Part shown: positions 8,701-60,385 of the stretch, in pieces | Layout of the letters: the number at the start of each line of letters is the position of its first letter | How positions within the stretch are numbered: the stretch's first letter is position 1 | NCBI GenBank assembly: GCA_016875915.1 | Contig: VGOM01000003.1 | Location: 66,716-130,715 of the forward strand | Direction of reading: 5' to 3' | Origin: Chloroflexota bacterium | Lineage (GTDB): Bacteria > Chloroflexota > Dehalococcoidia > UBA2247 > RBG-13-53-26 | Length of the DNA stretch: 64,000 bases | Notes under the pieces: generated by a model | Told to the model about the DNA's origin: nothing | Databases searched by the model: none | Seen by the model: only the letters and a program-made list of their open reading frames with translations | Made by a program: the position numbers and the translations under genes

Positions 8701-9207
8701 CTACTTGCTCTGGGATGGTCTGCCGGCCTCGGTCTCCTTGAGTCCGGCCAGGACCTCTTCCACCTTGAAGGGTGTCATCCTGGGGTGTATCTCTTCGCCG
8801 ACCACCACCACCGGGGCTAGGAAGCAGCAGCCGATGCAGGCCACCCTGTCCAGGCTGAACTCCCCGTCGTGGGTGATATCCCCCACCTTGGCCCCCAACT
8901 CCCTCTCCAGGGCGTCCAAGACCAGGGCTCCTCCGGCCATGTGACAGGCTGTGCCCATGCAGGCCTTCACCGGGTGTTTGCCTAGCGGCGTGAAGCGGAA
9001 GCGATTGTAGAACGTGGCCGTGCCGTAAACTGAGGCGGCCGGGACCCGGGTGAAGTTGGCCGCCTCCAGCATAGCCTCCCGAGGCAGGTAGCCGAACTCA
9101 TCTTCAGCCTCCTGCAGGATCCGTATCAGCTCCACCCTCTCCGGTTTGTGGCGGCTGAGTATGTGCCTCAGCTGCGCGGTGATCTTCCTGGAATCGGCGT
9201 GCTTCAT
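8701..9207 (-). CDS. NuoE-like [2Fe-2S] thioredoxin-like subunit
   Basis: CMGTACHMAG...CIGCCFLAPV cysteine pattern. Start chosen at MKHADS; this ATG overlaps the upstream stop as ATGA. Confidence 0.7.
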   Translation of the reverse strand: MKHADSRKITAQLRHILSRHKPERVELIRILQEAEDEFGYLPREAMLEAANFTRVPAASVYGTATFYNRFRFTPLGKHPVKACMGTACHMAGGALVLDALERELGAKVGDITHDGEFSLDRVACIGCCFLAPVVVVGEEIHPRMTPFKVEEVLAGLKETEAGRPSQSK

Positions 9208-9611
9208 ACCCGGCTGCAGATCTCCGGCGGATTCTCCACCGTCTCCTTCACATATCGTACCATATGGTTCAGGCACGCCACGGTGAGCTCGACGAGGTCT
9301 TCGCCGCGGATCTTCTTGATGTTGCCGCCCGAGTAGAGGACCCTGACGCTGCTGGGGAACTCCTCGTCGGCGCGGGTGTACAGGAAATGGATTCGGATGC
9401 CCGGGAAGAACTCCTTCCTCATGCCCCAGTGCTCACCCAGGCCCAGCGACTCCACCTCGGCCCCGACGAACCCGGCCAGCCCGGAGACGTCGTCCACCCG
9501 GTCCAGAGCCTCCTTCCGCAGATCCGCCTCTCTCTTGATGAAGGCATCATGGGGGGTGAGCGGCCCGTCGATCTCCTTGATGCTGACCAGCCTCTTGTCC
9601 TTCAGCCCCAT
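9204..9611 (-). CDS. hypothetical protein (~135 aa) embedded between cooC and nuoE-like
   Basis: ORF with GAGGTG RBS. Composition is protein-like; no family recognised. Confidence 0.45.
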   Translation of the reverse strand: MGLKDKRLVSIKEIDGPLTPHDAFIKREADLRKEALDRVDDVSGLAGFVGAEVESLGLGEHWGMRKEFFPGIRIHFLYTRADEEFPSSVRVLYSGGNIKKIRGEDLVELTVACLNHMVRYVKETVENPPEICSRV

Positions 9612-9639
9612 TCCTCCACCTCGGCCGCCCGGTCTGCGG

Positions 9640-10395
9640 TTACAGGCCAACCCTGTCGATCAGTTGAGTCACCCCTGTTCGCAGGGGCGAGTCCTGAGGC
9701 AACTGGGTCGTCGGCAGGCCTTTGACCTCCAGTTCCGCCAGGTTGGGGTCCTGTCGTATGGTGGCCATCAGCTCGAAGTTGTACTTGTTGATCGTCTCCT
9801 CGATCTCCGGAGGCAGGCCGTTGAGGGAGCGGTTGACCACCAGGCAGACCTTGCCCACGCTGGTTCGCAGTTCCCTGACGAGTGACTTCATGGCGGCGGC
9901 GGTTCTGATCCCTCTCTGGGTGAGGTCGGAGACGATGAGCAGTATGTCCACGTCCCTGGTCGTCTGGCGACTGATGTGCTCCATGCCCGCCTCGCTGTCG
10001 ATGACCACGTAGCGGTAGTTCTGGCCCAGCTTGTCGATGGACAGACGAAGCATGTTGTTGGCCGCGCAGTAGCAGCCGGGCCCCTCGGGGCGCCCGATGG
10101 CCAGGAGGTCGAATCCCTTGTATTCGTCCAGGGCCGCCCGTATCCTGCCGTCCAGGTACTCCTGTTTGGACAGGGTGGGACTGAAGGCCCCGGTCTGCAC
10201 CGACTGGCTCATCTCCTCGCGGATCCGGCCCACGGTCTCCCCAACGGGCACGCCCAGGGCCTGATTCAGGTTGGTGGCCGGGTCCGCGTCGATAGCCAGG
10301 ACCACCCCCTTCTGCGAAAGGAGATGGACCAGCAGGGCAGAAATAGTTGTCTTGCCGGTCCCCCCTTTGCCGGCAACGACAACTGTGGTGGTCAT
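9640..10395 (-). CDS. cooC: CO dehydrogenase nickel-insertion ATPase CooC/AcsF
   Basis: P-loop VAGKGGTGKTT; MinD/ParA fold with CxC; operon context. Confidence 0.85.
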   Translation of the reverse strand: MTTTVVVAGKGGTGKTTISALLVHLLSQKGVVLAIDADPATNLNQALGVPVGETVGRIREEMSQSVQTGAFSPTLSKQEYLDGRIRAALDEYKGFDLLAIGRPEGPGCYCAANNMLRLSIDKLGQNYRYVVIDSEAGMEHISRQTTRDVDILLIVSDLTQRGIRTAAAMKSLVRELRTSVGKVCLVVNRSLNGLPPEIEETINKYNFELMATIRQDPNLAELEVKGLPTTQLPQDSPLRTGVTQLIDRVGL

Positions 10396-10404
10396 GCTGT
10401 CGAC

Positions 10405-11772
10405 CTACTTCTTGAGGTTTGCGGCGAAGCCCGGCAGGAAGGCCGGGATCTCGCTGGCCTCCCTGGGGCCGACAACGATCTCCCAGCCGGGGAGGGCCTC
10501 CCCGAGTTCGCCCCTGATCCGGGCGGTCAGTCCAGGGATGATCAGCTTCCGGGTCTTGGTCCGGCCTTCAATGCCGCACTTCCTGACGAAGGGGGCGATG
10601 CTGTCGCCGGTGAACTTGCCGGCGGCCCAGCCGGTGAGCACACCCAGCCCCTCGGTGTCCTTGACCAGGAGGTAGGAAGCCACCTTGCTCCCCTCGATCT
10701 CGGAGCTGACGATGAAGTAGGTCAGGGCCCAGTTTGAGGTGATCAGGACCGGGGAGTCCTCAGTGGGCGTGCCTATGTCATATACCTTCTCTTCCACCGA
10801 CAGCGGCATGCGCGGATCGGTGAAGATGTTGAGACGCTGCACCAGAAGCGGCAGCAGCGAGTGCTGATCGAAGTCGGAGAGGACGGTGATGGCGGCGAAC
10901 TTCACCACGAATGCGGAGGCGGCCAGCGCCTCCTTCAGCCCGCCCTTGGCCACAAAGCATGGGAAGGATATGGTTGGATAGCCCAGCGGCCGGAAGTTCT
11001 GCTTCACCGCCGCCCTGCGGATGAAGGTCTGGTCTCGTATTCCTTCCGTGAGGTTCTTGGAGCCGGGGTCCAGGACCAGATCATCGATCTTCTCTGCCTT
11101 CAGCTTGGTGGTCAGTGGAACAAGTTCAGCGATACTGGAAGCCTTGACTCCCAGAGGGGTTGGCGACTGCTTCACCCTGGGAATCACGGCGTCGATGTTC
11201 TCTTTGGTGATGGGATAGAGGAGCGGCTTTCGGTCGCCGCAGACGTCCCTGGCGGCGAACAGGGTCTCAACGTCGGTGCAAATGAGGACCAGCCCGGCAT
11301 CGGTGCTCGCGCATACCTTCTTCACCAGGGCCAGGTACTTGGCCTTGTCCCCGGATTCGTGTTGCAGGGCTATCAGGTCGGCCTTTAGCTTCAGCCCGAC
11401 CCTCTCGAACTGGATGTCTCTGACCTTCTTGATCTTGGCTTCTGCAACAGCATCGGAATCCTTGTCAGAGATGAGGATGGCTATGGCCGTGGGATGGAAG
11501 TAGGTCTTCTCATGCCGGTAGATCACCTCTTCGTTTCCGATCTGCACGGCGTTACTCCCGGCACCGATAGTGACCAGCTTGATGGCCGGCGCCAGGGCAT
11601 CCTCAAGCTCTGCCTTCACCTCAGCCGTCAGGTAGGGGCACTTGTCCAGCGTAGCTCCCCCTGAAGCCAGCTTCATGGCAAAGGCGAAACAGGTGGGGAA
11701 ACCGCACTCCTTGCAGTTCTTCTTCCCTGCTTCGGGCAGTCTCTTGACAACGTCGGTTCCTTTGATGGGCAT
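10405..11772 (-). CDS. cdhE: corrinoid iron-sulfur protein large subunit, CdhE/AcsC (gamma)
   Basis: N-terminal [4Fe-4S] motif CKECGFPTCFAFAMKLA...CPY, then a TIM-barrel/corrinoid domain; 455 aa. Confidence 0.9.
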   Translation of the reverse strand: MPIKGTDVVKRLPEAGKKNCKECGFPTCFAFAMKLASGGATLDKCPYLTAEVKAELEDALAPAIKLVTIGAGSNAVQIGNEEVIYRHEKTYFHPTAIAILISDKDSDAVAEAKIKKVRDIQFERVGLKLKADLIALQHESGDKAKYLALVKKVCASTDAGLVLICTDVETLFAARDVCGDRKPLLYPITKENIDAVIPRVKQSPTPLGVKASSIAELVPLTTKLKAEKIDDLVLDPGSKNLTEGIRDQTFIRRAAVKQNFRPLGYPTISFPCFVAKGGLKEALAASAFVVKFAAITVLSDFDQHSLLPLLVQRLNIFTDPRMPLSVEEKVYDIGTPTEDSPVLITSNWALTYFIVSSEIEGSKVASYLLVKDTEGLGVLTGWAAGKFTGDSIAPFVRKCGIEGRTKTRKLIIPGLTARIRGELGEALPGWEIVVGPREASEIPAFLPGFAANLKK

Positions 11773-11812
11773 GCTGAATCCTCCTCTATCTCAATGCAGT
11801 CCTATTCCGCAC

Positions 11813-13033
11813 CTAGATTGGCAGCTCTACCTCACCCTTTATCCAGGGGTGCCCCACCTTCTCCAGGAAGGCGGGAAGTTGGTCAACGGTCTTGACATCC
11901 TCTTCGCTGGCTATCTTGTCGTACAGGTCTGCCGGGATGACATCCTTGTAGCGTTCCTTGATGGCCTTGGGCATCCAGACTACTCTGCGCAGTCCGCCGT
12001 CTGCCTGGAAGAACTTCGGCGATCTGATCAGTTCCAGGGCCAGTCCGCAGGAACCCTCCACCTGTCTGCCGCCGGACGTTACCCCGGCCATCTTGGAGAA
12101 GGCCTCGCCGAGCAGCGTCGGCCCGACGAAATCCCTGTGGACGATGCCGAAGGCATCCACTTCTGGGATGTAGAACAGAATAGCCTGGAAGCAGCCACAG
12201 GAGGTGTGGGGGTGCTCAAAGGCGCTGTGGAGATAGACCCGATTGTATTCCCCCAACGATCTCTCGGCGACGCACTGATTGCAGCCACTGTATTCCCCCC
12301 TGCCGGGGTCCAGCAGTTCACCCTTCTCCACTCCGAAGATGGGACCTTCGGGATCCAGCTTGTAGGCCGCCTTGCCGTCAAACCAGTTGATGGCGCCGCA
12401 GTTGGCGATCCGCTCTGGAGTGATCACACAGCAGTGGGTGGGGGCGAAGCTCTGGCACAGGACGCAGCCGTAGAAGAGGTCCACGTCTTCTTCTCTCAGA
12501 CCCTTCAGCCTCTCATCCCTGGCCTCGTAGACCTTGAGGGCTTCGGCCAGCAACTCCTGGACCTTCTTCTCATCGGTGACCAGGGTGATCGATATCTTCT
12601 CGATGGCAGACAGCTCCGAGGTGTAGAGGAAGATCAGAATGTCCCCTACCTCCTTCAGGGAGTTGAGACCCTTCTTGAAGGAGGCCTTGCTCAACCTGAT
12701 CCAGACGTCGTTTCTCTGGTTCATGTGATACACGCCCTCTATGTAGTTGGCGTACATGTGCATCCGCCTCTCGATCACCGGCTCCATGTCCTTCTCTAGG
12801 GCCTCACCGGCGATATTGATCAGGATGGCTATGGGGTAGCTGGACCCCTCCGGCATATCCTTGATATCAGGTCCGATGACCTCCACCTTCTCGTGTTCGA
12901 TCTCATCGGGATTCTTCAGCGTCACCAGTTCGAACTTGGCCTTTGCCTTTGGACCGCCAAACTCGACCTGCATGTCCTCTTTGCGGATCACCTCGCCTTC
13001 ATACTGGGGCCCGATATCGACGTGAAACTCCAT
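11813..13033 (-). CDS. cdhC: acetyl-CoA synthase catalytic (A-cluster) subunit, archaeal-type CdhC (beta), short form of 406 aa
   Basis: A-cluster Cys-Gly-Cys (SCGCFQ) and upstream Cys ligands; operon context. Confidence 0.8.
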   Translation of the reverse strand: MEFHVDIGPQYEGEVIRKEDMQVEFGGPKAKAKFELVTLKNPDEIEHEKVEVIGPDIKDMPEGSSYPIAILINIAGEALEKDMEPVIERRMHMYANYIEGVYHMNQRNDVWIRLSKASFKKGLNSLKEVGDILIFLYTSELSAIEKISITLVTDEKKVQELLAEALKVYEARDERLKGLREEDVDLFYGCVLCQSFAPTHCCVITPERIANCGAINWFDGKAAYKLDPEGPIFGVEKGELLDPGRGEYSGCNQCVAERSLGEYNRVYLHSAFEHPHTSCGCFQAILFYIPEVDAFGIVHRDFVGPTLLGEAFSKMAGVTSGGRQVEGSCGLALELIRSPKFFQADGGLRRVVWMPKAIKERYKDVIPADLYDKIASEEDVKTVDQLPAFLEKVGHPWIKGEVELPI

Positions 13034-13034
13034 C

Positions 13035-13580
13035 CTATCCTTCCTCCTTCAATTTGGATACCAGGGTTTCCAGGAAACTCTTCCACTCCTCGTCCTTCCT
13101 GAAGTTCGGGAGTGAGAAATCAGCATTGGGGAACACGTATTTGCAGAGAGTCATGGTCTTCAAGTGGGGCGCGAAGTGCTTCAGAGTGGAGAGGCCCTGA
13201 TTCCCGAGGTCTGTCCTGATTCCGAAGAAGACCACCAGGTCGTGGTTGCCCTCCTTCCTGACGCCCTTCCAATCAGGATCCTTGAGGCGGTTGATTATCT
13301 CGACGACGTCATACTCGCTGTCGGGCTTGACCCCCAGTTCCATCATCTTGGCCCTGATGTGTGCCGTGGCGCATATCGGTGCCTTGGACGCCTTGGCTAT
13401 CTCCAGTGCGTATTCGACGAGGGACTTCCCGTCAAGGCAAGTGCCCAGCAATCTGGGGCCGAGCACGAATAGTGGTCGCTTCGCCCGCTTGATCGTGTCG
13501 GCAAACTCGGCAGCCTCGGTCACTACCTTGGCTCCCTTTGTCCCGGTTAGGACGTTGACCCTGTGAAGTGGCATCACCAT
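13035..13580 (-). CDS. cdhB: CODH/ACS epsilon subunit CdhB
   Basis: ~180 aa, positioned between cdhA and cdhC; typical CdhB size and composition. Confidence 0.7.
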   Translation of the reverse strand: MVMPLHRVNVLTGTKGAKVVTEAAEFADTIKRAKRPLFVLGPRLLGTCLDGKSLVEYALEIAKASKAPICATAHIRAKMMELGVKPDSEYDVVEIINRLKDPDWKGVRKEGNHDLVVFFGIRTDLGNQGLSTLKHFAPHLKTMTLCKYVFPNADFSLPNFRKDEEWKSFLETLVSKLKEEG

Positions 13581-13652
13581 AGCACTCGGTCCTCCTCGGT
13601 TGTCGACTCATGGCGTGTCGCGCGAATCATCAGTCTGCCCCCGTCACATTCC

Positions 13653-15965
13653 CTAGTGGATCACTGCTTCCAGAGGCACCTTGGTGGGATATGTGCCAAT
13701 CAGTGTGGGCAGGCTCAGAACGGGCTTGGGCTTCCAGCCGATCTCCTTGAGGTAGGTCAGTACCTCCTTCTTGTACACGATGGGGAGGTCCTTGTCGGTC
13801 CGGACATAGTGCTGCAGGTCCTCAGGCAGTCCGCTTCCCATATGCTTCTTGTACAGGGAGATGTAGTGATTGAGCTTGATCGCCCTGCCCTGCGGGGTGT
13901 CGTTCTTCCTGATACACAGCTTGGCGATGGTCACCATGGCTCGTTCCTTCGATTCCGTGACGTACACCAGGTGTTCTGGTGAAGGCTCCTCCGTGTCCAC
14001 GATTTCCCGTTTTCGCCCGTCCATGACCTTCCAGTCATCCTCGCCCTTCTTGCTGAGGTACAGTCTCCGGTATTTTGAGGAGTGAGGGCCGAGCAACACC
14101 GGGATGCCCATGCGGTTGCAGCCCGTGGCGATGGTGGCTGCCTTCTGGGAGTAGGCTCCCCAGGCCACTCCGCAGGCGCCCACGCGGTTGAGGATGTAGT
14201 CGGCGATAACCTCGTAGTTGCCCCTGAGAGGGAGGGTGGCGAAGATGTTGGCGATCTTTATGGCCGCCCCGGTGATGTGGGCATTGGCTACGCAGGAGCC
14301 CACGTTCACAACTCCTCCTGCGTCGAAGTTCCCCGGGAACCTCTCGTAGATCGTCTTTCCCTCGGCATCCTTCTTCATACCGGCCACCATAGCGGCGCAG
14401 CCGCTCATGACCACGATGTACTTCCTCTTGGCGAACTCCTCTGCCATCTCTACGATGTCGTCCACATCGGGGTAGTTGGAGCAGCCCACGAAGGCCACTA
14501 CCCCGGGGATGGTGCCGAGCACGATGGGGGCCCCGACGTTCCTGATCTCCGTGTCCATGATCGGGCCGCGTCCCGCCCTGACCTTGAAAGTATCGGTGCC
14601 GGCGACTGCCTGCATTATTCTCATTATGGGGATCTTGCGCGGGCAATCCTGATCGCACTTCCCACAGCCAATACACTCGTCAACCATCTGCCGCAGGGGC
14701 TCGAAATTGCCTTGCCCGGCCTGCCTTATCCCAGTCCCGATAGACATCAGGTTGGGACAGGCCCTCTCGCATATCTCGCATTCCCGACATGACTTGGCCA
14801 GCTCCTGGGCTTCCTTCTCGTCGAGGAGGTGCTTCCGTCTCTGTGGAGCCAGCTTCAGGGCCACCTTCACCGCCACCTCCCCGGCCTTCTCGTGGTCCAG
14901 GATGAGGTACTGCTTTCCTTCCTCGACCACCTTCTTCACGATCTCGTCGGCATCCATTTCGGTGGCGTCCTCGAAACCGTAGCAGGCCTTGTCCGAGGTG
15001 GCAATCATAGCGGTGCCCACCTTCTTGGCCTCTATGCCTACGTCAGTCCTGATGCACTGTTCATCCGTGACGATGACATCAGCTATCCCGGTCCTGACGT
15101 AGTAGAGCTGTCTGGAGAGCGGCCCGATCACCTTCGCCTTGTCGGCATATCTCGTGGTCTCCAGAGCGGTGCAGCAGATCCCGCCAACCTCCACCTTGTC
15201 GTACAGGTCGTTCTTGCGGAGATGGTCGATGATGTTCGTCGAGGTGGCGGGGTTGTGGCCGATGACCAGTATCGTCGGCTTGGCGATGTCCACACACGAG
15301 ACCCCAGCGTCGATCAAAGGCGTATCGGCAACCGAAGTTGGGTACTTGAAGCCGGTGATCTGGGCTATGTCGGCGGCTTCCATGACCACATGGTCCAGCA
15401 TGCCGGCATGAAGCGCCTTTGACTCGTAGTCCAGATTGCTGCCCTCCTGCCCCGTATTGAGGGCGGAAACCAGGTGGATCAGCTCACGTTCCGCGTATTC
15501 TACGGCCGTTCTCAGATCTGCCAGTGTCTCCGGCTTCAGGCCCAGCACTGTCCTGATGTTGGGGGCCTCAACGGCGACGTTGTCTCCCAGGTTGATCTTG
15601 CAGTCCTCGCCATGCTTCTCGATGAGGTAGTCGATGATATGCCGGGCATGGCCACCGTGGGCGGCCAGTCCCATACAGCAGGCCAGGAGCACGATCCTTC
15701 CCTGTTGACCGGCGATATCGATGCCGCAGGCTCCTCTCTTGCCCGCGGTGAGGTCGCACTTGCCGTAGGTGCAGAAACAGCACAGGTCGCAGAATGGTGC
15801 GTACCACGGAGCGTAGGTCTTCAGGAGCCTCATATCCCAGTTTCGCAGGTCGGCCACGTCTGGCATCGGCGTGGCGCCGATCGGCTCCCAGTTGTCTTCC
15901 GCCCTGATGATCTTCTCGATTTCCTTGCGTTTCTTGGTCTTCTTGTGTTCCGCTGTTTGCGTCAT
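13653..15965 (-). CDS. cdhA: carbon monoxide dehydrogenase catalytic alpha subunit CdhA (archaeal-type, with inserted ferredoxin domain)
   Basis: 770 aa. N-terminal Cys cluster CDLCCFCTYGKCDL; HcpC/CooS fold motifs; internal 2x[4Fe-4S] (CRECEICERACP, CIGCGKCDQDCP). Confidence 0.9.
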   Translation of the reverse strand: MTQTAEHKKTKKRKEIEKIIRAEDNWEPIGATPMPDVADLRNWDMRLLKTYAPWYAPFCDLCCFCTYGKCDLTAGKRGACGIDIAGQQGRIVLLACCMGLAAHGGHARHIIDYLIEKHGEDCKINLGDNVAVEAPNIRTVLGLKPETLADLRTAVEYAERELIHLVSALNTGQEGSNLDYESKALHAGMLDHVVMEAADIAQITGFKYPTSVADTPLIDAGVSCVDIAKPTILVIGHNPATSTNIIDHLRKNDLYDKVEVGGICCTALETTRYADKAKVIGPLSRQLYYVRTGIADVIVTDEQCIRTDVGIEAKKVGTAMIATSDKACYGFEDATEMDADEIVKKVVEEGKQYLILDHEKAGEVAVKVALKLAPQRRKHLLDEKEAQELAKSCRECEICERACPNLMSIGTGIRQAGQGNFEPLRQMVDECIGCGKCDQDCPRKIPIMRIMQAVAGTDTFKVRAGRGPIMDTEIRNVGAPIVLGTIPGVVAFVGCSNYPDVDDIVEMAEEFAKRKYIVVMSGCAAMVAGMKKDAEGKTIYERFPGNFDAGGVVNVGSCVANAHITGAAIKIANIFATLPLRGNYEVIADYILNRVGACGVAWGAYSQKAATIATGCNRMGIPVLLGPHSSKYRRLYLSKKGEDDWKVMDGRKREIVDTEEPSPEHLVYVTESKERAMVTIAKLCIRKNDTPQGRAIKLNHYISLYKKHMGSGLPEDLQHYVRTDKDLPIVYKKEVLTYLKEIGWKPKPVLSLPTLIGTYPTKVPLEAVIH

Positions 15966-15968
15966 GTC

Positions 15969-16874
15969 CTACCCCTGTTTGATGGTTTCTCTTACCAGCT
16001 TGAGTGTCTCGGGATGTCTCAACACCACCAGGTTTGCCCCGGCTAGGAGGAGGGAGATGGCGGTCATTCCTTCCCAGAGTATGCCCTGCTCCTTGTTCTC
16101 CTTGGCCTCCTTGGTCTTCCAGCACTCGCCTGCCACGTCGGCGATGATCGGCATCTGTGTCTGGGCGTCCTTGAAGATGACCCCGGTCTGCTTCGTTCTC
16201 TCCATGATGGTGAAGGTGTATTCCATGCCATACCCCAGGGCTGAACTCAGGGGGTCAATGACGACCCTGTCAGCGGGGAAGACCTTGGACAGTTTGATGT
16301 TCAGCTCTTTCATCAGGTTGATGTCCAGCGGGCTCTGAGCGATTATGGCATGGCCATTCTCTGCCGCAGCCTTGGCGATCACCTCGTAGTTCTCCTTCAC
16401 CACCGGGCCGAGGAGCAGGTTTTCGCCCTTGCACACTTCAGCCACCTTGGACAGCACCTGGGCGTCCTTCTTGTCGTCCTTTGACCCGCAGACGATCAGC
16501 GGTGCTCCCACTGCATCAGCCACCTTCTTGACCAGCTGTGCTGCTCCCTCTGCTGGGGCATTCTTGCCCGCCGGGTCGGTGCTCTCCAGTACCAGACAGA
16601 TGGCGTCCGCTCCATAGTCCAGGCACTTCTTGGCCCACTTGACGGGATCGGATATCACGTCTTGGAACGGTTCCAGGACCCACTTGGCCCATCCCTCTGG
16701 CGGTGAATCGAAGACTTGGAGGGCGAACTTGGGCGGGTTGGGTATGGAGCCCTCGTCGAAGAAATGGAAGGGGAGGGCATTCTCCCCGCCTATCTTCAAA
16801 GCCTTGGGGCCTTTGCCGATGGCAACCTCTCTGACCTTCCCGGTGTATGACTCGACTGCTGCTTTGTACTCCAT
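15969..16874 (-). CDS. cdhD: corrinoid iron-sulfur protein small subunit CdhD/AcsD (delta)
   Basis: 301 aa TIM-barrel protein directly upstream of cdhA; N-terminus MEYKAAVESYTGKVREVAIG resembles AcsD. Confidence 0.85.
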   Translation of the reverse strand: MEYKAAVESYTGKVREVAIGKGPKALKIGGENALPFHFFDEGSIPNPPKFALQVFDSPPEGWAKWVLEPFQDVISDPVKWAKKCLDYGADAICLVLESTDPAGKNAPAEGAAQLVKKVADAVGAPLIVCGSKDDKKDAQVLSKVAEVCKGENLLLGPVVKENYEVIAKAAAENGHAIIAQSPLDINLMKELNIKLSKVFPADRVVIDPLSSALGYGMEYTFTIMERTKQTGVIFKDAQTQMPIIADVAGECWKTKEAKENKEQGILWEGMTAISLLLAGANLVVLRHPETLKLVRETIKQG

Positions 16875-16900
16875 AGTCTGTCCCTTCTCCTTTCCTGTCT

Positions 16901-17815
16901 CTAGTCCTCCAACCAGGAATGGGAATATAGCGTCTGCCCCAGGAGGATCTGGGCTGTCTTCACATAGTCACGCTGCTTCTTGGAGAGGCTCGAGAGTACG
17001 ATATGTTCCTCGTCCATTGCCTTGTGGATGAGTTCGATGATGTCAGGCATCTTGCCCTGGTCTAGAGCCATTAGCTCCGCATCCAGGGGGTCGGCGATGG
17101 CGGAGTACAGTCCGTTTCGTTTCAGCATCATCAGGTAGGTGCGGTTGATGATCCCTCTGAGTTCCTCGGGTGTTCCATTGGACACATTTGAAAGGCCCAC
17201 TGTGGATTTGATGTCAGGCAGGATATCAGGCAGTATCTTGATGAACTCCAGGTCCGCGGTCACCTGTGTCTGGTCCGCGCTCACTGGCAGTACGATCGGA
17301 TCGACCCAGATGTCCTCGTTGGGGATGCCCAGTTCGTTGGCGTAGGCCACCGTGTCCAGGATGCTCTCTGTCCTCGATTCCACATCAGGCGGGCAACCCT
17401 TGTCTGTGAGCACTGACAGGACCACGGCAGTGTTGTACTTCTTGGCTAGGGGCAGCGTCTTCTCCTTGCTGTCGGTTCGCCCTGACGCCGAGTTGAGCAG
17501 TGGTCTCTTCTTGCTGGCCTTCAGACCTGCCTCCATGGCGATGGGATTCAGGGTATCTATCGACAACGGCAAATCGGACACGGCCTGCACGGTGTTCACC
17601 AGCCACTCCACGGTCTCCTCGGGGTTCTTCCTCGCTGGACCTATGTTCAGGTCCAGGTAATCCGCGCCTGCCTTGGTCTGAGCTATGGCCAGATCCTGGA
17701 TTACCTTGGCGTTTCTCTCCTTCACTGCTGTGGAGACTTCCTTGGAGATGATGTGGATATTCTCACCGATGATGATCACTGAGTACCTCCTTGCGTATTC
17801 TGAATGGCACGCCAA
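16901..17815 (-). CDS. acsE: methyltetrahydrofolate:corrinoid/iron-sulfur protein methyltransferase AcsE (pterin-binding, MtrH-like)
   Basis: 304 aa. Pterin-binding barrel motifs IIGENIH and DYLDLN; first gene of the operon. Confidence 0.85.
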   Translation of the reverse strand: MACHSEYARRYSVIIIGENIHIISKEVSTAVKERNAKVIQDLAIAQTKAGADYLDLNIGPARKNPEETVEWLVNTVQAVSDLPLSIDTLNPIAMEAGLKASKKRPLLNSASGRTDSKEKTLPLAKKYNTAVVLSVLTDKGCPPDVESRTESILDTVAYANELGIPNEDIWVDPIVLPVSADQTQVTADLEFIKILPDILPDIKSTVGLSNVSNGTPEELRGIINRTYLMMLKRNGLYSAIADPLDAELMALDQGKMPDIIELIHKAMDEEHIVLSSLSKKQRDYVKTAQILLGQTLYSHSWLED

Positions 17816-55628: not shown

Positions 55629-56297
55629 CTACGGTGCTTTCAGAACCATGAAGGAGAAGGAGTTCTGGATCTTGGATCCGCATTCATCGTAGATCTGCAC
55701 GGACAGCCGGCCTCCCGTGCTCCCGTAGCCTGCACCACGTGCGGCACTGAATGTGGGAGTGATTATCGTCACGAAGCTATTGCACTCGTATGAGATGCCA
55801 GATAGCGCAATCAGATAGCGGCAATGGTTGCTGTCCCAGGCGCAACTGTCGACGTTGAACCCATAGTCGATGGCTCCGCTTTCACCTATAGCGCCCATGG
55901 CAACTATCATGTTTGGCCCGGGCTCTCCCTGGGTACCCTGCACTCCCTGGTCGCCCGTGTCACCCTTCGCTCCCTGCGGACCTTGTTCCCCCTGAACCCC
56001 CTGCATGCCTTGAGGACCCTGCTCTCCGATCTCGCCCTTGACGCCTTGAACACCCTGCATTCCCTGTTCGCCCTGGGCTCCTTGTGGTCCCGGCGAACCC
56101 ATCATGCTGCCTGTCCTGTACATGCCACCATCGGTCAGATTGATGGTAATGGTGCCGTCGGCGTTGCTCACCACGCTCTCAATCCCAACCCCTGGTGGCC
56201 CCTGTTTGCCCCTGGCCCCCGCACAAGCACTGCCTACAGTTGCGCCAGCGACCAGCAGTAGTACCACCCCGACAGTCACGAGCTTGAAGAAACGCAT
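55629..56297 (-). CDS. secreted collagen-like triple-helix repeat protein
   Basis: Signal/anchor MRFFKLVTVGVVLLLVAGATVGSACA; about 25 G-x-y triplets, then a ~90-aa Cys-containing C-terminal domain. Confidence 0.7.
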   Translation of the reverse strand: MRFFKLVTVGVVLLLVAGATVGSACAGARGKQGPPGVGIESVVSNADGTITINLTDGGMYRTGSMMGSPGPQGAQGEQGMQGVQGVKGEIGEQGPQGMQGVQGEQGPQGAKGDTGDQGVQGTQGEPGPNMIVAMGAIGESGAIDYGFNVDSCAWDSNHCRYLIALSGISYECNSFVTIITPTFSAARGAGYGSTGGRLSVQIYDECGSKIQNSFSFMVLKAP

Positions 56298-56737: not shown

Positions 56738-57835
56738 CTACCCGTGGGAGGCCGCCGCCCGACCTGGTTCCCCGCCGAAGTACCGCCGCTTGAAGTAGAG
56801 CGACACATTCACCAGGCTGATCAGCACCGGCACCTCCACCAGCGGCCCGATCACCGCTGCAAACGCCACTCCCGAGCCGATGCCGAACACCGCCACCGCC
56901 ACCGCGATAGCCAGTTCGAAGTTGTTGCTGGCGGCTGTGAAAGCGATGGTGGCTGTCTTCGAGTAGTCGGCCCCAACCCTCTTGCCCATGTAGAATGAGA
57001 CCAAGAACATCGCCACGAAGTAGATCAGCAGCGGGATGGCGATGCGCACCACGTCCAGAGGCTGATCCACTATCTCTTCCCCTCTGAGTGAGAACATCAC
57101 CACAATGGTGAAAAGCAGAGCGACAAGGGTCATCGGGCTGATGTTCGGGATGAACCTGCTTTCGTACCACTGCCGCCTCTTCGCTCTGAGCAAGGCAAAG
57201 CGGGTGAGCATCCCGCCAAAGAAGGGGATGCCCAGGTAGATAGCCACACTCCGGGCGATCTCTGCCATGGTCACCTCCACTGACGCCCCCTCCAGGCCGA
57301 ATTTGGGCGGCAGAACGGTGACGAACACGTAGGCGTACACGGAGTAGAACAGTATCTGGAAGATGGAGTTGAAGGCCACCAGACCGGCTGCATACTCCGT
57401 ATTCCCCTTGGCCAGCTCGTTCCACACGATGACCATGGCGATGCAGCGGGCCAGGCCCATCATGATCAGTCCCACCATGTAGTCCGGGTAGTCCCAGAGC
57501 ACCCCCAGGAACAGTATCGCCAGGAAGAACATCAGCACCGGGCCGATGACCCAGTTCTGCACTAGTGAGAGCCCCAGCACCCGCCAGTTGCGGAACACCC
57601 GGCCCAGCTCCTCGTACCTCACCTTCGCCAGAGGTGGATACATCATCAGGATCAGCCCGATGGCGATGGGTATTGAGGTGGTGCCCACCTGGAAGCGGGT
57701 GATGGTGTCGGCCACCTCGGGAACGAAGTTGCCCAGCCCCACTCCCAGCGCCATGGCCAGGAATATCCACAGCGTCAGGAAGCGGTCGAGCAGAGAGAGC
57801 CGGCCCATTCGGGTTCCCGGTTTGGTGTTGCTCAT
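56738..57835 (-). CDS. acr3: ACR3-family arsenite efflux permease
   Basis: Polytopic; [10 protein letters not shown] and MMYPPLAKV motifs typical of the ACR3/ArsB(Acr3) family. Confidence 0.85.
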
Positions 57836-57941
57836 CCCCCGGTTCGCAGCCACTCCATTCCAGCGACCTGTCTGGGACGTTCTATCTTGCTTCTCCCCCG
57901 ATGCCCCTGATTGGCTGATCTCCACTCAACTTCAGCAATCA

Positions 57942-58781
57942 TCACCCCAGCAGCTTGGCCAGCGCCTGGCGGTCGGCAGCGGCCTCAGGCTCACCCAGCG
58001 GCGGGCACTCCTCAAGGCGGGCCTTCCCCTTGGCCAGATCTATGGCGAAGGCCAGACAGGTCTTCCGGCCACACTCGCGGCAGTTGGTCTGCGGCAGGAA
58101 TTTGTTCATGGCCAGGCCCATGCCCATCTTCGACTTGCCCGGCTCGATGGCATGCTGCGGTTTGTGCTCCTGCAACACTGACGCGATCTTGTGGAACAGC
58201 GCCGGCTCCGGATACGCCCCCATGTCATGCACTGTGTAGCCCCTGAACACCACCGGATTCTCCTGGAAACAGCTCCAGACGGCCTTCTCTACTACCTTGG
58301 GGTCAAGCCCGGGTGACTTGGTATCGGTCTCTCCCGGGCGGCACAGCAGGCTGACGATGGTCACTATCTGCTTGTTGAATCTCTCGATCACCTCCACAGG
58401 GATGTTGTGCAGATATGGAGTCGGCGCTGTCGATCCGATGACCTGCTTCTTGTCATCAACACCGTTCCTCTTCAATGCCAGCAGCGTTTCCCCCGGCAGA
58501 TGCCCGGAGGACTCCCTGCCGCAGAGCACCAGATACCGGATATTGGGGTTGGCCACGATGTTGCATAGCATCTTCTCCGTGCCCACGTTCTCCGTCTGCA
58601 GCATGCCCGACAGCGCCGCCCCGGCGTCCATCCCTGCCAGAACCAGCGACTGCAGCTCGGGGGGAATCTTGAAGTCGAAATCGTCCAGGATCACGCAGAC
58701 TGCTACCGGGGAGAAGTCATTGCCCCTGACATAGCGCCCCGGCTCAGGAGGATAGCCCTCTGGCGGCTTCACTTTCAGCAT
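57942..58781 (-). CDS. MtrA-like corrinoid-binding domain fused to a CFeSP-type N-terminal [4Fe-4S] domain
   Basis: Blocks close to methanogen MtrA (PVAVCVIL, QTENVGTEKMLCNIVANPNIRYLVLCGRESSGH, NGVD, HNIPVEVIERF). C-terminal CRECGRKTCLAFAIDLAKGKARLEECP resembles the N-terminus of CdhE at 10405..11772. GGAGG RBS. Confidence 0.75.
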   Translation of the reverse strand: MLKVKPPEGYPPEPGRYVRGNDFSPVAVCVILDDFDFKIPPELQSLVLAGMDAGAALSGMLQTENVGTEKMLCNIVANPNIRYLVLCGRESSGHLPGETLLALKRNGVDDKKQVIGSTAPTPYLHNIPVEVIERFNKQIVTIVSLLCRPGETDTKSPGLDPKVVEKAVWSCFQENPVVFRGYTVHDMGAYPEPALFHKIASVLQEHKPQHAIEPGKSKMGMGLAMNKFLPQTNCRECGRKTCLAFAIDLAKGKARLEECPPLGEPEAAADRQALAKLLG

Positions 58782-58906
58782 CACGACTCGCCTCCAATTA
58801 TCAGGTATGGATACCCCCCTTGACAAAGCCCGGTGGTCGTAATATGATATGTCTCGATATATCGAGATATTACCCGATATAGTTCAAACCAGCAAGGGAG
58901 TTGGGC

Positions 58907-59404: not shown

Positions 59405-59420
59405 AAGGGAGGGAAACGGA

Positions 59421-59897
59421 ATGAGCGACATGAGTGACATGATGAAGGCCATGTTGGGCAGCATGAGCAAAGAGGAGAAGCTGGGGATGATGAGTACCAT
59501 GATGGAGACCTTCTTCGCCGGCGTGTCGGTCCAGGATAGACAGAAGATGATGGAGCAGATGATGCCGAAGATGATGGAAGGGGTCAACATGATGGAGATG
59601 ATGCCCAGGATGATGATGGGCATGATGCCAGCTATGATGGGCAGAAGCGAAGGCAGGGAAGGGATGACCCCGGTGATGGGCGGCTGTCACGGAGAGGGTA
59701 TGGGTATGATGCCGCAGATGATGGTCCAGATGATGCCGAACTGCGTCAAGATGATGCTTCCCGGTATGCCCAAGGAAGAGCGTATGGACTTTGTCTCCAA
59801 TATGGTCGCCACCCTGGTGGAGCAGGGCTCGGCCGGAATGTCGGAGGAAGAGAAGAGCGAGTTCGTGGCCAGGATACTGGAGAAGGTAACCTCCTGA
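59421..59897 (+). CDS. methionine-rich protein (~40 of 158 residues Met; MMP/MMxxMM repeats; one Cys-His pair)
   Basis: Strong GGGAGGG RBS 16 nt after the padR stop; GC3-rich codons on this strand, while the antisense His-rich ORF has T-rich third positions. Confidence 0.6.
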   Translation: MSDMSDMMKAMLGSMSKEEKLGMMSTMMETFFAGVSVQDRQKMMEQMMPKMMEGVNMMEMMPRMMMGMMPAMMGRSEGREGMTPVMGGCHGEGMGMMPQMMVQMMPNCVKMMLPGMPKEERMDFVSNMVATLVEQGSAGMSEEEKSEFVARILEKVTS

Positions 59898-60104
59898 AGC
59901 CCGCCGGGCTCCTTCTGTCGTCACCGCAGACCTGAACCACGTCCTGCATCCCCGTCCGCGGTTGCACCCCGTCCGGAGTCATCGCTGCTGCTCCCGCTTG
60001 ACCCACCTCATCAAGCCACGAGACCCCGCGGCGCAACCGCCCTGCGCAACCCCGGCCCCCAATCGTCTCCTCTCCACCACTTTGCCCCGCCCAAAGGGTT
60101 CGGT

Positions 60105-60134
60105 TTTACAGGGTCATCCGGAAAACTATATAAT
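60105..60134 (+). promoter_or_regulatory. sigma70-like promoter (TTTACA -35, 18-nt spacer, TATAAT -10) embedded in a CCGGAAA...TTTCGG inverted repeat
   Basis: An AT-rich island in GC-rich DNA 250 nt upstream of the HMGCS-like gene; an inverted repeat brackets the -10. Confidence 0.5.
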
Positions 60135-60385
60135 TACTTTCGGTAATGGCGACTCAGGTCACTGCAAAGCGGCTTCCCCCACGTGTCATCCTAGCCAGCC
60201 GTTTGCAGTCGGCCCCATCCCTTCTCCAGCTTCTGACTGAGCCCCGTTTCGTTCGCCATCGGACTGCCCCTGCGTGTAGGCGGTGGTCCGCCTAGTCCGT
60301 GCCTGCCGGGGCCCATGTCGCCCGGTGGCATGACTCTACATCGGAGAATGAGAACAGATCTAGACTAAGGAGGTAAAGAGGGAAA

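Follow-up and report, generated by a model that had tools for sequence, protein, structure and literature searches.

The Met-rich proteins that bind Cu(I) or Ag(I) through Mets motifs are extracytoplasmic, mostly of beta fold or disordered, and often assisted by histidine (His). MrpX of Azospira suillum, a small protein with 20% methionine (Met) and 44% charged residues, is induced by stress and sacrificially oxidized; it carries a signal peptide, is periplasmic, is encoded together with yedYZ (MsrPQ), and is controlled by the extracytoplasmic function (ECF) pair SigF/NrsF (PMC4436054). In the current study, a gene for a Met-rich protein of 158 amino acids (aa) was analyzed, which lies behind a gene for a PadR-family regulator in a stretch of 64,000 nucleotides (nt) from a Chloroflexota bacterium (the window; positions are counted from its first letter). 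What is new is a protein family that is predicted to be cytosolic, combines thioethers with a thiolate, and recurs in arsenic (ars) operons. Its function is putative, and the favoured reading, tentatively held at slightly less than an even chance, is that of an inducible cytosolic binder of thiophilic metals and metalloids, which would act as a buffer or a hand-over carrier.

The protein contains 42 Met (26.6%), 17 Glu, 16 Gly and 9 Lys, and 23% of its residues are charged. Of the 408 open reading frames (ORFs) in the window that are 50 aa or longer, it has by far the highest Met content, with 11.5% for the runner-up and a median of 2.5%. Four exact MMPxMM units were counted (MMPKMM at residue 47, MMPRMM at 60, MMPAMM at 68 and MMPQMM at 96), in line with the initial annotation, which had noted about 40 Met in such repeats; a fifth related unit, MMPNC, lies at residue 104. 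The Kyte-Doolittle maximum over 19-aa windows was 0.68, indicating that the protein has neither a signal peptide (as the annotation had also proposed) nor a membrane helix, and it is predicted to be cytoplasmic. Only 4 of 269 family members showed a hydrophobic segment at the N-terminus. The further claims that the gene is well signalled for translation and adjoins a PadR regulator and an acr3 cluster agree with the GGGAGGG sequence 7 nt upstream of the ATG and with the order of the neighbouring genes, PadR being directly upstream and an MtrA-like/iron-sulfur (Fe-S) protein and Acr3 lying beyond it. The 'single Cys-His pair' of the annotation stood only in part: C89-H90 exists, but among the two Cys and one His of the protein a second cysteine, C108, had been overlooked, and the pair is not conserved, C89 and H90 being replaced by Gly and Gln in most relatives.

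A homology search, which had been suggested together with that annotation, revealed a widespread unannotated Met-rich family in bacteria and archaea. In 5.8 billion proteins (90% clustering) 246 relatives were found, mostly of 140–185 aa, all of them named hypothetical and none with a Pfam domain, while 1.84 billion cluster representatives (50% identity), searched exhaustively with a profile, yielded 414 clusters at E≤1e-3, of which 206 remained at E≤1e-10. Scans of the Met-rich protein against Pfam, NCBIfam and PADLOC gave no significant match, and a plasmid collection searched with the family gave none. Among species-representative genomes, carriers were found in Dehalococcoidia, other Chloroflexi, Desulfobulbaceae, Desulfobacterales, Methanosarcinaceae, Methanotrichaceae, an ANME-1-type archaeon, Aminicenantes, Nitrospinales, Hydrogenimonas and several Alphaproteobacteria, including the isolate Roseovarius marisflavi DSM 29327; Methanolobus sp. 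ZRKC3 (Methanosarcinaceae) has two copies. Most carriers are strict anaerobes. No description of the family was found in the literature on Met-rich proteins with arsM, PadR, copper or anaerobes, on TsoA/HgcC, or on anaerobic arsenic methylation, and the Met-rich MMPxC family appears to be undescribed so far. In one locus of a Chloroflexi metagenome-assembled genome (L029 5977-6500; loci are given by such numbers) the gene is frameshifted after MMPHC, which represents either a pseudogene or an assembly error.

The window protein has every column that is invariant in alignments of 28 and 105 sequences, among them M48, P49, P106, C108, P114, F124 and E144. In a wider alignment of 176 members, about 35 columns were 86–97% Met with only 1–13% Leu, Ile, Val or Phe, whereas at columns 31, 32, 109, 113, 124, 129, 132 and 148 the residues L, I, V and F interchange and Met almost never occurs. 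Since Met has a single codon and the Met columns are kept apart from the aliphatic ones, strong selection for the thioether itself is indicated; judged from these alignments, it is sulfur that is selected at the Met columns, beyond mere hydrophobicity. Position 108 was Cys in 159 of 174 sequences (91%), members generally have one or two Cys (exactly one in 96 of 175), and 62 members are free of His. The family signature, MMPxC(L/V)xMMLPxxPKEERxDFxLxMVxxLxEQGSxGMSEEEKxxFVxKVxEKV, follows the MMxxMM helices, and this C-terminal part of the protein also occurs stand-alone in proteins of 55–110 aa. With the C-terminal domain alone as query, 13 short proteins and no fusions were retrieved.

AlphaFold2 (AF2) gave the same picture with two different alignments. 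Three N-terminal helices (residues 2–13, 17–31 and 37–52) were modelled with a predicted local distance difference test (pLDDT) score of 56–69, and a linker, which is variable in length and GGMMGMMS-like in many relatives, connects them to a C-terminal domain of three helices (96–115, 118–136 and 142–157). Because Met recurs at positions i, i+1, i+4 and i+5 in the MMxxMM period, each N-terminal helix is expected to present an all-Met face of roughly 180 degrees, and C108, as read from the sequence, sits in the middle of the Met arc on helix 96–115. Profile-profile alignment by hhalign matched residues 1–50 with 102–155 (E=7e-4, probability 27%), placing C108 opposite M7 and the core residues of the C-terminal domain opposite Met, which suggests an internal duplication whose N-terminal copy would have an all-Met core. 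No structural match to the Met-rich protein was found by Foldseek against the PDB, and a PDB sequence profile search returned designed helical repeats only.

The genes around family members were mapped at 58 loci from genomes and 80 from metagenomes, with ArsM, Acr3, ArsP or a CVC-type ArsR counted as a core ars gene. Of 116 loci, 17 have such a gene within 6 kb of the Met-rich one; when only the loci of at least 5 kb are counted, the figure is 12 of 68. For a random gene an expectation of about 1% or less is presumed. The gene orders of these operons are listed in Table 1. ArsM was identified by its match to NF008823 (357 bits, cutoff 263) together with the ArsM Cys motifs, and three members of the 'ArsM' cluster (L025, L031 and L051), in which these motifs are missing, were dropped from the count. 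At L105 the MtrA-like/Fe-S protein encoded directly upstream of the Met-rich gene has 76% identity to its orthologue in the window.

The MtrA-like domain fused to a PF04060 Fe-S domain was observed in the window (57942..58826 on the minus strand, with the probable start at 58781) as well as at L105 2191-3024, L014 2892-3584 and 5449-6321, and L025 4578-5255. In several ars operons of bacteria and archaea its gene adjoins those for Acr3, ArsM and ArsR(CVC). No literature was found on an MtrA-like/Fe-S protein in ars operons; by analogy with HgcA, it could be a partner in corrinoid-dependent arsenic methylation or demethylation. In Dehalococcoidia-type loci (L005 6177-6527, L009 4757-5014, L052 8823-9083, L094, L099, L100, L135 and L142), ArsM and not hgcAB was found to be the partner of an AbrB-type protein, which matches the NCBIfam model 'HgcAB-associated protein HgcC' (106 bits, cutoff 70).

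Copper and mercury determinants were also encountered. The order CopA (multicopper oxidase)-CopB-MetRich occurs in two Hydrogenimonas species, a Cu P1B-ATPase (TIGR01511, 626 bits) is encoded near the Met-rich gene in Methanosarcinaceae, genes for MerA (588 bits), a MerR-like and a MerT-like protein flank a member that consists of the C-terminal domain only (L047), and a fragment of an MbdU-like metal-binding selenoprotein lies near the gene at L010. The link to soft metals that the initial annotation had drawn from the Mets motifs is thus supported by context (ars genes, CopA/CopB, Cu P1B-ATPase, MerA/MerR/MerT), but the strongest association is with arsenic and not with copper or silver. Its comparison with CTR, CusF and PcoC was not borne out; these proteins are unrelated, as the family protein has no signal peptide, an all-helical model and no Pfam match.

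Thiol-redox partners form another recurrent context, with an AhpD/CMD protein carrying a CxxC motif next to the Met-rich gene in 5 loci. On a 3.4-Mb Nitrospinales contig (L050 5462-5938) one fusion protein combines a Met-rich MMPxC domain with a CMD/AhpD CxxC domain, and a second gene for a stand-alone Met-rich domain and another CMD gene follow downstream. A protein of about 165 aa with Cys residues and the motif CRMCP lies beside Met-rich and CMD genes in Alphaproteobacteria-type loci (L028 5645-5938, L044 1555-2175 and L058 7496-7990), and gave no Pfam or NCBIfam match. In Methanosarcinaceae, a protein of about 104 aa with an N-terminal MMPAMMKKCM and a C-terminal part resembling a helix-turn-helix (HTH) domain (L022 5576-5884, L030 5591-5905, L145 and L146) is encoded by a gene that has an ArsR-family gene on one side and the Met-rich gene on the other; downstream in these loci lie genes for a cytochrome-c-like lipoprotein and the Cu P1B-ATPase.

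The PadR-family regulator (PF03551, 74 bits; cutoff 27) was assigned an ATG start, as 12 orthologues align from MF..., and its stop codon is separated from the start codon of the Met-rich gene by 16 nt. In 40 of 116 loci the gene directly preceding the Met-rich one encodes PadR. Among 11 aligned Chloroflexi loci, most have kept both hexamers of the sigma-70-type promoter in front of PadR, and the core of the palindrome that follows, GATATATCG, is invariant in 11 of 11 despite differing flanking genes. The 10-bp core CGATATATCG occurs only once in the window. The position of PadR together with the conserved promoter and palindrome indicates a self-contained two-gene module, which in Chloroflexi is a predicted PadR-MetRich operon. 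We infer from this arrangement that PadR binds TCTCGATATATCGAGA, and the module is presumably autorepressed. Promoter-like sites lie back to back at 58797-58848, with overlapping -35 hexamers (TTGACA on the plus and TTGTCA on the minus strand), so that the PadR operator region may act on the divergent MtrA-like/Acr3 operon as well.

The metal(loid)-binder reading is favoured because of the selection for thioethers, combined with a single invariant Cys in a proline-framed motif, because dedicated regulators of the stress type (PadR, ArsR and ECF sigma) accompany the gene, and because it recurs in operons with arsenic, copper or mercury determinants and thiol-redox partners. In the proposed mechanism, PadR would repress the operon through the palindrome until stress releases the repression. 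The Met faces and the MMPxC site would then coordinate As(III) or methyl-As(III), Cu(I) or Hg(II), and the bound species would be handed to efflux or methylation enzymes, or kept off Fe-S and thiol proteins. The machinery served may be Acr3 efflux, ArsM methylation and the MtrA-like corrinoid/Fe-S protein in this lineage, and copper or mercury systems in other phyla. A bolder version, which is rather doubtful, makes the family a core accessory component of anaerobic arsenic operons, i.e. a helical carrier lined by thioethers and equipped with one reactive thiolate, which would hold As(III) or methyl-As(III) and shuttle it between corrinoid MtrA-like/Fe-S proteins, ArsM and Acr3/ArsP, with copper and mercury systems taking this place elsewhere. 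If this holds, a cytosolic metal(loid) chaperone that relies chiefly on Met ligands would be a first.

Several points weigh against metal(loid) binding. As(III) prefers two or three thiolates, but the protein offers one conserved Cys and no conserved His, so that binding would call for oligomerization or for a small thiol as co-ligand in a mixed complex. Thioether-rich sites are classically extracytoplasmic sites for Cu(I) or Ag(I), and cytosolic Met-based sites are unusual. Within 6 kb, metal genes are missing from about 80% of the loci, and the context is heterogeneous; many PadR-MetRich pairs of Chloroflexi sit among unrelated metabolic genes, and for most such pairs there is no recognizable metal gene nearby. 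The enrichment of ars genes stands without a formal genome-wide control, no conserved Cys or His and no metal-sensor site built on them were found in the alignment of the 12 PadR orthologues, and the N-terminal half of the protein was modelled at a pLDDT of only 56–69.

The main rival, unlikely as it is, is a sacrificial Met sink, i.e. a cytosolic analogue of MrpX. Its surface Met would be oxidized by the reactive oxygen species, reactive chlorine or electrophiles that arise during metal(loid) stress, and housekeeping Msr enzymes or thiol systems would then reduce them again. The composition recalls in part that of stress-induced, sacrificially oxidized MrpX, with 26.6% Met, but only 23% charged residues as compared with 44% in MrpX; AhpD-type (alkylhydroperoxidase-like) CxxC proteins adjoin in the 5 loci mentioned and are fused once, and genes for ECF sigma factors and SHOCT proteins lie nearby in several loci. 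Arsenic and copper, moreover, both cause oxidative stress. On the other hand, Met columns that are 86–97% Met and an invariant Cys and Pro extend from archaea to proteobacteria, and such strict position-specific conservation is more than a sink based on composition only would need. This conservation and the lack of Msr genes nearby weaken the alternative of a sink for reactive oxygen species, which the initial annotation had also raised. No signature motif of MsrA or MsrB was found in any ORF within 6 kb in 59 loci, the protein lacks both a signal peptide and a yedYZ/msrPQ partner, and its carriers are mostly strict anaerobes.

Roles as an adaptor or as a Met reserve are less likely than the MrpX-like sink. 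The first of these, for which the chances appear small, would be a 'methionine-bristle' adaptor (as in the SRP54 M domain or the calmodulin pockets) that holds a hydrophobic ligand or peptide and not a metal ion, for example an organoarsenical, a corrinoid or the PadR repressor itself, with a role as anti-repressor or co-sensor. The amphipathic helices with their Met faces would suit such a role, as would the position directly behind a transcription factor, which is PadR in 40 loci, while Methanosarcinaceae have an ArsR and the small HTH-like protein with the same MMPxMMxxC motif upstream. PadR regulators usually sense hydrophobic or phenolic molecules, corrinoid-type proteins (B12-binding or MtrA-like) are frequent immediate neighbours, and two members bear the JGI name 'predicted GTPase'. 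However, most phyla carry the family without PadR, and Met hardly ever changes to Leu or Ile, a swap that a purely hydrophobic groove should tolerate. There is also no detectable similarity to SRP54_M or any solved protein, and the invariant Cys is left unexplained. A probability of similarly small size is reserved for functions that were not considered.

It is very improbable that the protein is a reserve of Met and sulfur, degraded to feed the regeneration of S-adenosylmethionine (SAM) for methylation by ArsM. Its extreme Met content and the presence of the SAM-dependent ArsM next to it in at least 6 loci would fit, but storage would require neither ordered conserved motifs nor an invariant Cys and Pro nor a folded domain, many loci have no ArsM, and no protease or MetK partner was seen.

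That there is no gene here, or that the antisense His-rich ORF is the actual gene, has a probability close to nil: although this ORF of 236 aa exists and antisense ORFs recur in 53 loci, the G+C content at third codon positions (GC3) is 0.84 in the sense frame (PadR 0.73, MtrA-like 0.79, Acr3 0.83) and 0.46 in the antisense ORF, and changes at the third position prevail in codon alignments of 13 family genes (0.26, 0.20 and 0.48 differences per site at positions 1, 2 and 3). Of the 95 codons that differ between the window and L001, 36 differ synonymously when read in the sense frame, compared with 9 of 95 in the antisense register. The sense gene has a ribosome-binding site and its length and termini are conserved, whereas the antisense ORF overlaps PadR. 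Its GC3, its mostly non-synonymous changes and this overlap rule it out as a real gene, in agreement with the initial annotation, which had called it an artefact, and by these measures the plus-strand ORF is a real gene.

The features of the window and the gene orders at related loci are given in Table 1. The MtrA-like/Fe-S protein (PF04208, 125.7 bits; PF04060, 52.3 bits) and Acr3 are transcribed divergently from the same region of about 125 bp as PadR-MetRich. Downstream of the Met-rich gene, about 490 bp of non-coding DNA (59898..60385) contain a promoter-like site at 60105-60134 and, on the plus strand, no site resembling an intrinsic terminator; an Rfam scan of 56–61 kb gave no match. The minus-strand ORF at 55629..56297 encodes a secreted protein, in which Gly-X-Y is repeated over a long collagen-like stretch (GPQGAQGEQGMQGVQG...). 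ORF translations further showed a cluster resembling CO dehydrogenase/acetyl-CoA synthase with corrinoid Fe-S components at about 9200-17800 on the minus strand, including an Fe-S domain protein at 10405..11772, which is consistent with an anaerobic genome of the Chloroflexi type.

Table 1. Features of the window around the Met-rich gene, and order of genes at related loci.
Feature	Position	Strand	Remarks
Acr3 arsenite efflux permease	56738..57925	-	TIGR00832, 457 bits (cutoff 283)
MtrA-like corrinoid-type + PF04060 Fe-S protein	57942..58781	-	probable start ATG 58781; divergent from PadR
Promoter, sigma-70 type (TTGACA-17-TATGAT)	58820..58848	+	11/12 consensus matches
Perfect 16-bp palindrome TCTCGATATATCGAGA, putative PadR operator	58852..58867		just 3' of the -10 hexamer
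Additional half-site CGATATA	58875..58881		kept in 9/11 aligned loci
PadR-family regulator gene, 165 aa	58907..59404	+	start ATG 58907; ORF list starts at TTG 58901
Antisense His-rich ORF, 236 aa	59214..59924	-	artefact of ATG/CAT complementarity; overlaps 3' end of PadR
Shine-Dalgarno sequence GGGAGGG	59407..59413	+	read from the sequence; 7 nt to the Met-rich ATG
Met-rich protein gene	59421..59897	+	158 aa plus stop
N-terminal helical repeat, aa 1-52	59421..59576	+	predicted: three amphipathic helices, Met face, M[ST]xEEK caps
Met/Gly/Pro-rich linker, aa 53-95	59577..59705	+	pLDDT 31-47; holds unconserved C89-H90 (59685-59690)
C-terminal three-helix domain, aa 96-158	59706..59894	+	family core; pLDDT 89-97
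Cys108 codon	59742..59744	+	conserved family cysteine (alignments)
Gene order at L105		single strand	Trx-like - CcdA-like - DUF169-like - MtrA-like/FeS - MetRich - ArsM - Acr3
Gene order at L014 (archaeon)			MetRich - ArsM - MtrA-like ... ArsR(CVC) - ArsP - MtrA-like/FeS
Gene order at L041			ArsR(CVC) - ArsM - ArsR(CVC) - ArsP ... MetRich - FeS-domain protein - DsbA-like - Acr3
Gene order at L009, L135, L142			HgcC-like - ArsM - MetRich
Gene order at L094, L099, L100			ArsM + HgcC-like divergent from PadR-MetRich
Gene order at L018, L108, L123			MetRich - Trx-like - CcdA-like - Acr3

In anoxic soils and sediments, such as rice paddies, aquifers and seeps, arsenic is methylated and detoxified by poorly understood anaerobes, whose ars operons hold many unnamed genes, the Met-rich family being one of them. 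Should metal(loid) binding prove true, the family would represent a new, thioether-dominated set of cytosolic ligands for soft metals and a new marker gene for anaerobic arsenic handling and, together with the MtrA-like/Fe-S neighbour, an entry point into corrinoid-linked methylation or demethylation of arsenic. If the protein were instead a cytosolic Met sink, the concept of MrpX would be extended to anaerobes and to the cytoplasm.

Among the described systems, MrpX is likewise small, rich in Met and provided with a dedicated regulator, its share of charged residues (44%) being higher than the 23% of the window protein. No sequence similarity to it was detected, and the window protein differs in being cytosolic and PadR-controlled (both as predicted), in its conserved Cys and fixed Met positions, and in its ars contexts; no molybdopterin oxidoreductase was found among the frequent neighbours of the Met-rich gene. 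With the Mets-motif binders of Cu(I) and Ag(I) (the Ctr1 ectodomain with its MMMMPM, CopC/PcoC, CusF, the Met-rich inserts of CueO/PcoA, and SilE/PcoE) the family shares thioether motifs of the MxxM/MMP type, and some members lie behind CopA-CopB or near a Cu P1B-ATPase. Unlike these binders, the family is predicted to be cytosolic and helical, without a conserved His, with one Cys, and linked foremost to arsenic. The Pfam scan of the Met-rich protein gave no match to CopC, CusF or related families, and the AF2 model is all-helical, with neither a beta-sandwich nor an OB fold.

ArsD is also a small accessory protein inside ars operons, and the Met-rich protein could similarly pass a metalloid to a transporter or an enzyme. 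ArsD has a thioredoxin-like fold, a Cys12-Cys13-Cys18 site for As(III), and ArsA as its partner, whereas the Met-rich protein has one conserved Cys and an all-helical predicted fold; motifs of ArsA and ArsD were absent from every locus examined. Csp1 and Csp3 resemble it in having helix faces lined by sulfur side chains, and Csp3 is cytosolic as well, but the Csp proteins are four-helix bundles lined by Cys thiolates, while the Met-rich protein has Met thioethers on predicted three-helix units. No match to solved structures was found in Foldseek and sequence searches. The SRP54 M domain shares the Met-rich amphipathic helices ('methionine bristles'), but no PF02978 match was obtained, there is no GTPase domain in a protein of only 158 aa, and the Met positions are intolerant of Leu and Ile.

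Finally, TsoA, a selenoprotein with the LULAXC motif (NF045695; PMC13188914), resembles the family in the MMPxC helix region (weak match, E=0.012), but the Met-rich protein has no selenocysteine. The TsoA model scored 16 bits against a cutoff of 170, E<0.01 was reached in only 3 of 105 family members, and the hhalign alignment of the family with the TsoA-like neighbour covered a 14-aa motif only (probability 1%); homology to TsoA was rejected on these grounds. That neighbour is the Methanosarcinaceae protein of about 104 aa, the C-terminal part of which matched TsoA at E=8e-10, below the NCBIfam cutoff, and a homology search from it returned 4 proteins and no named TsoA. On comparison of sequences and models the Met-rich protein is placed outside the families of CopC/CusF, ArsD, Csp, the SRP54 M domain and TsoA. 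By analogy, it probably works most like the known Met-rich binders of soft metals or like Met sinks.

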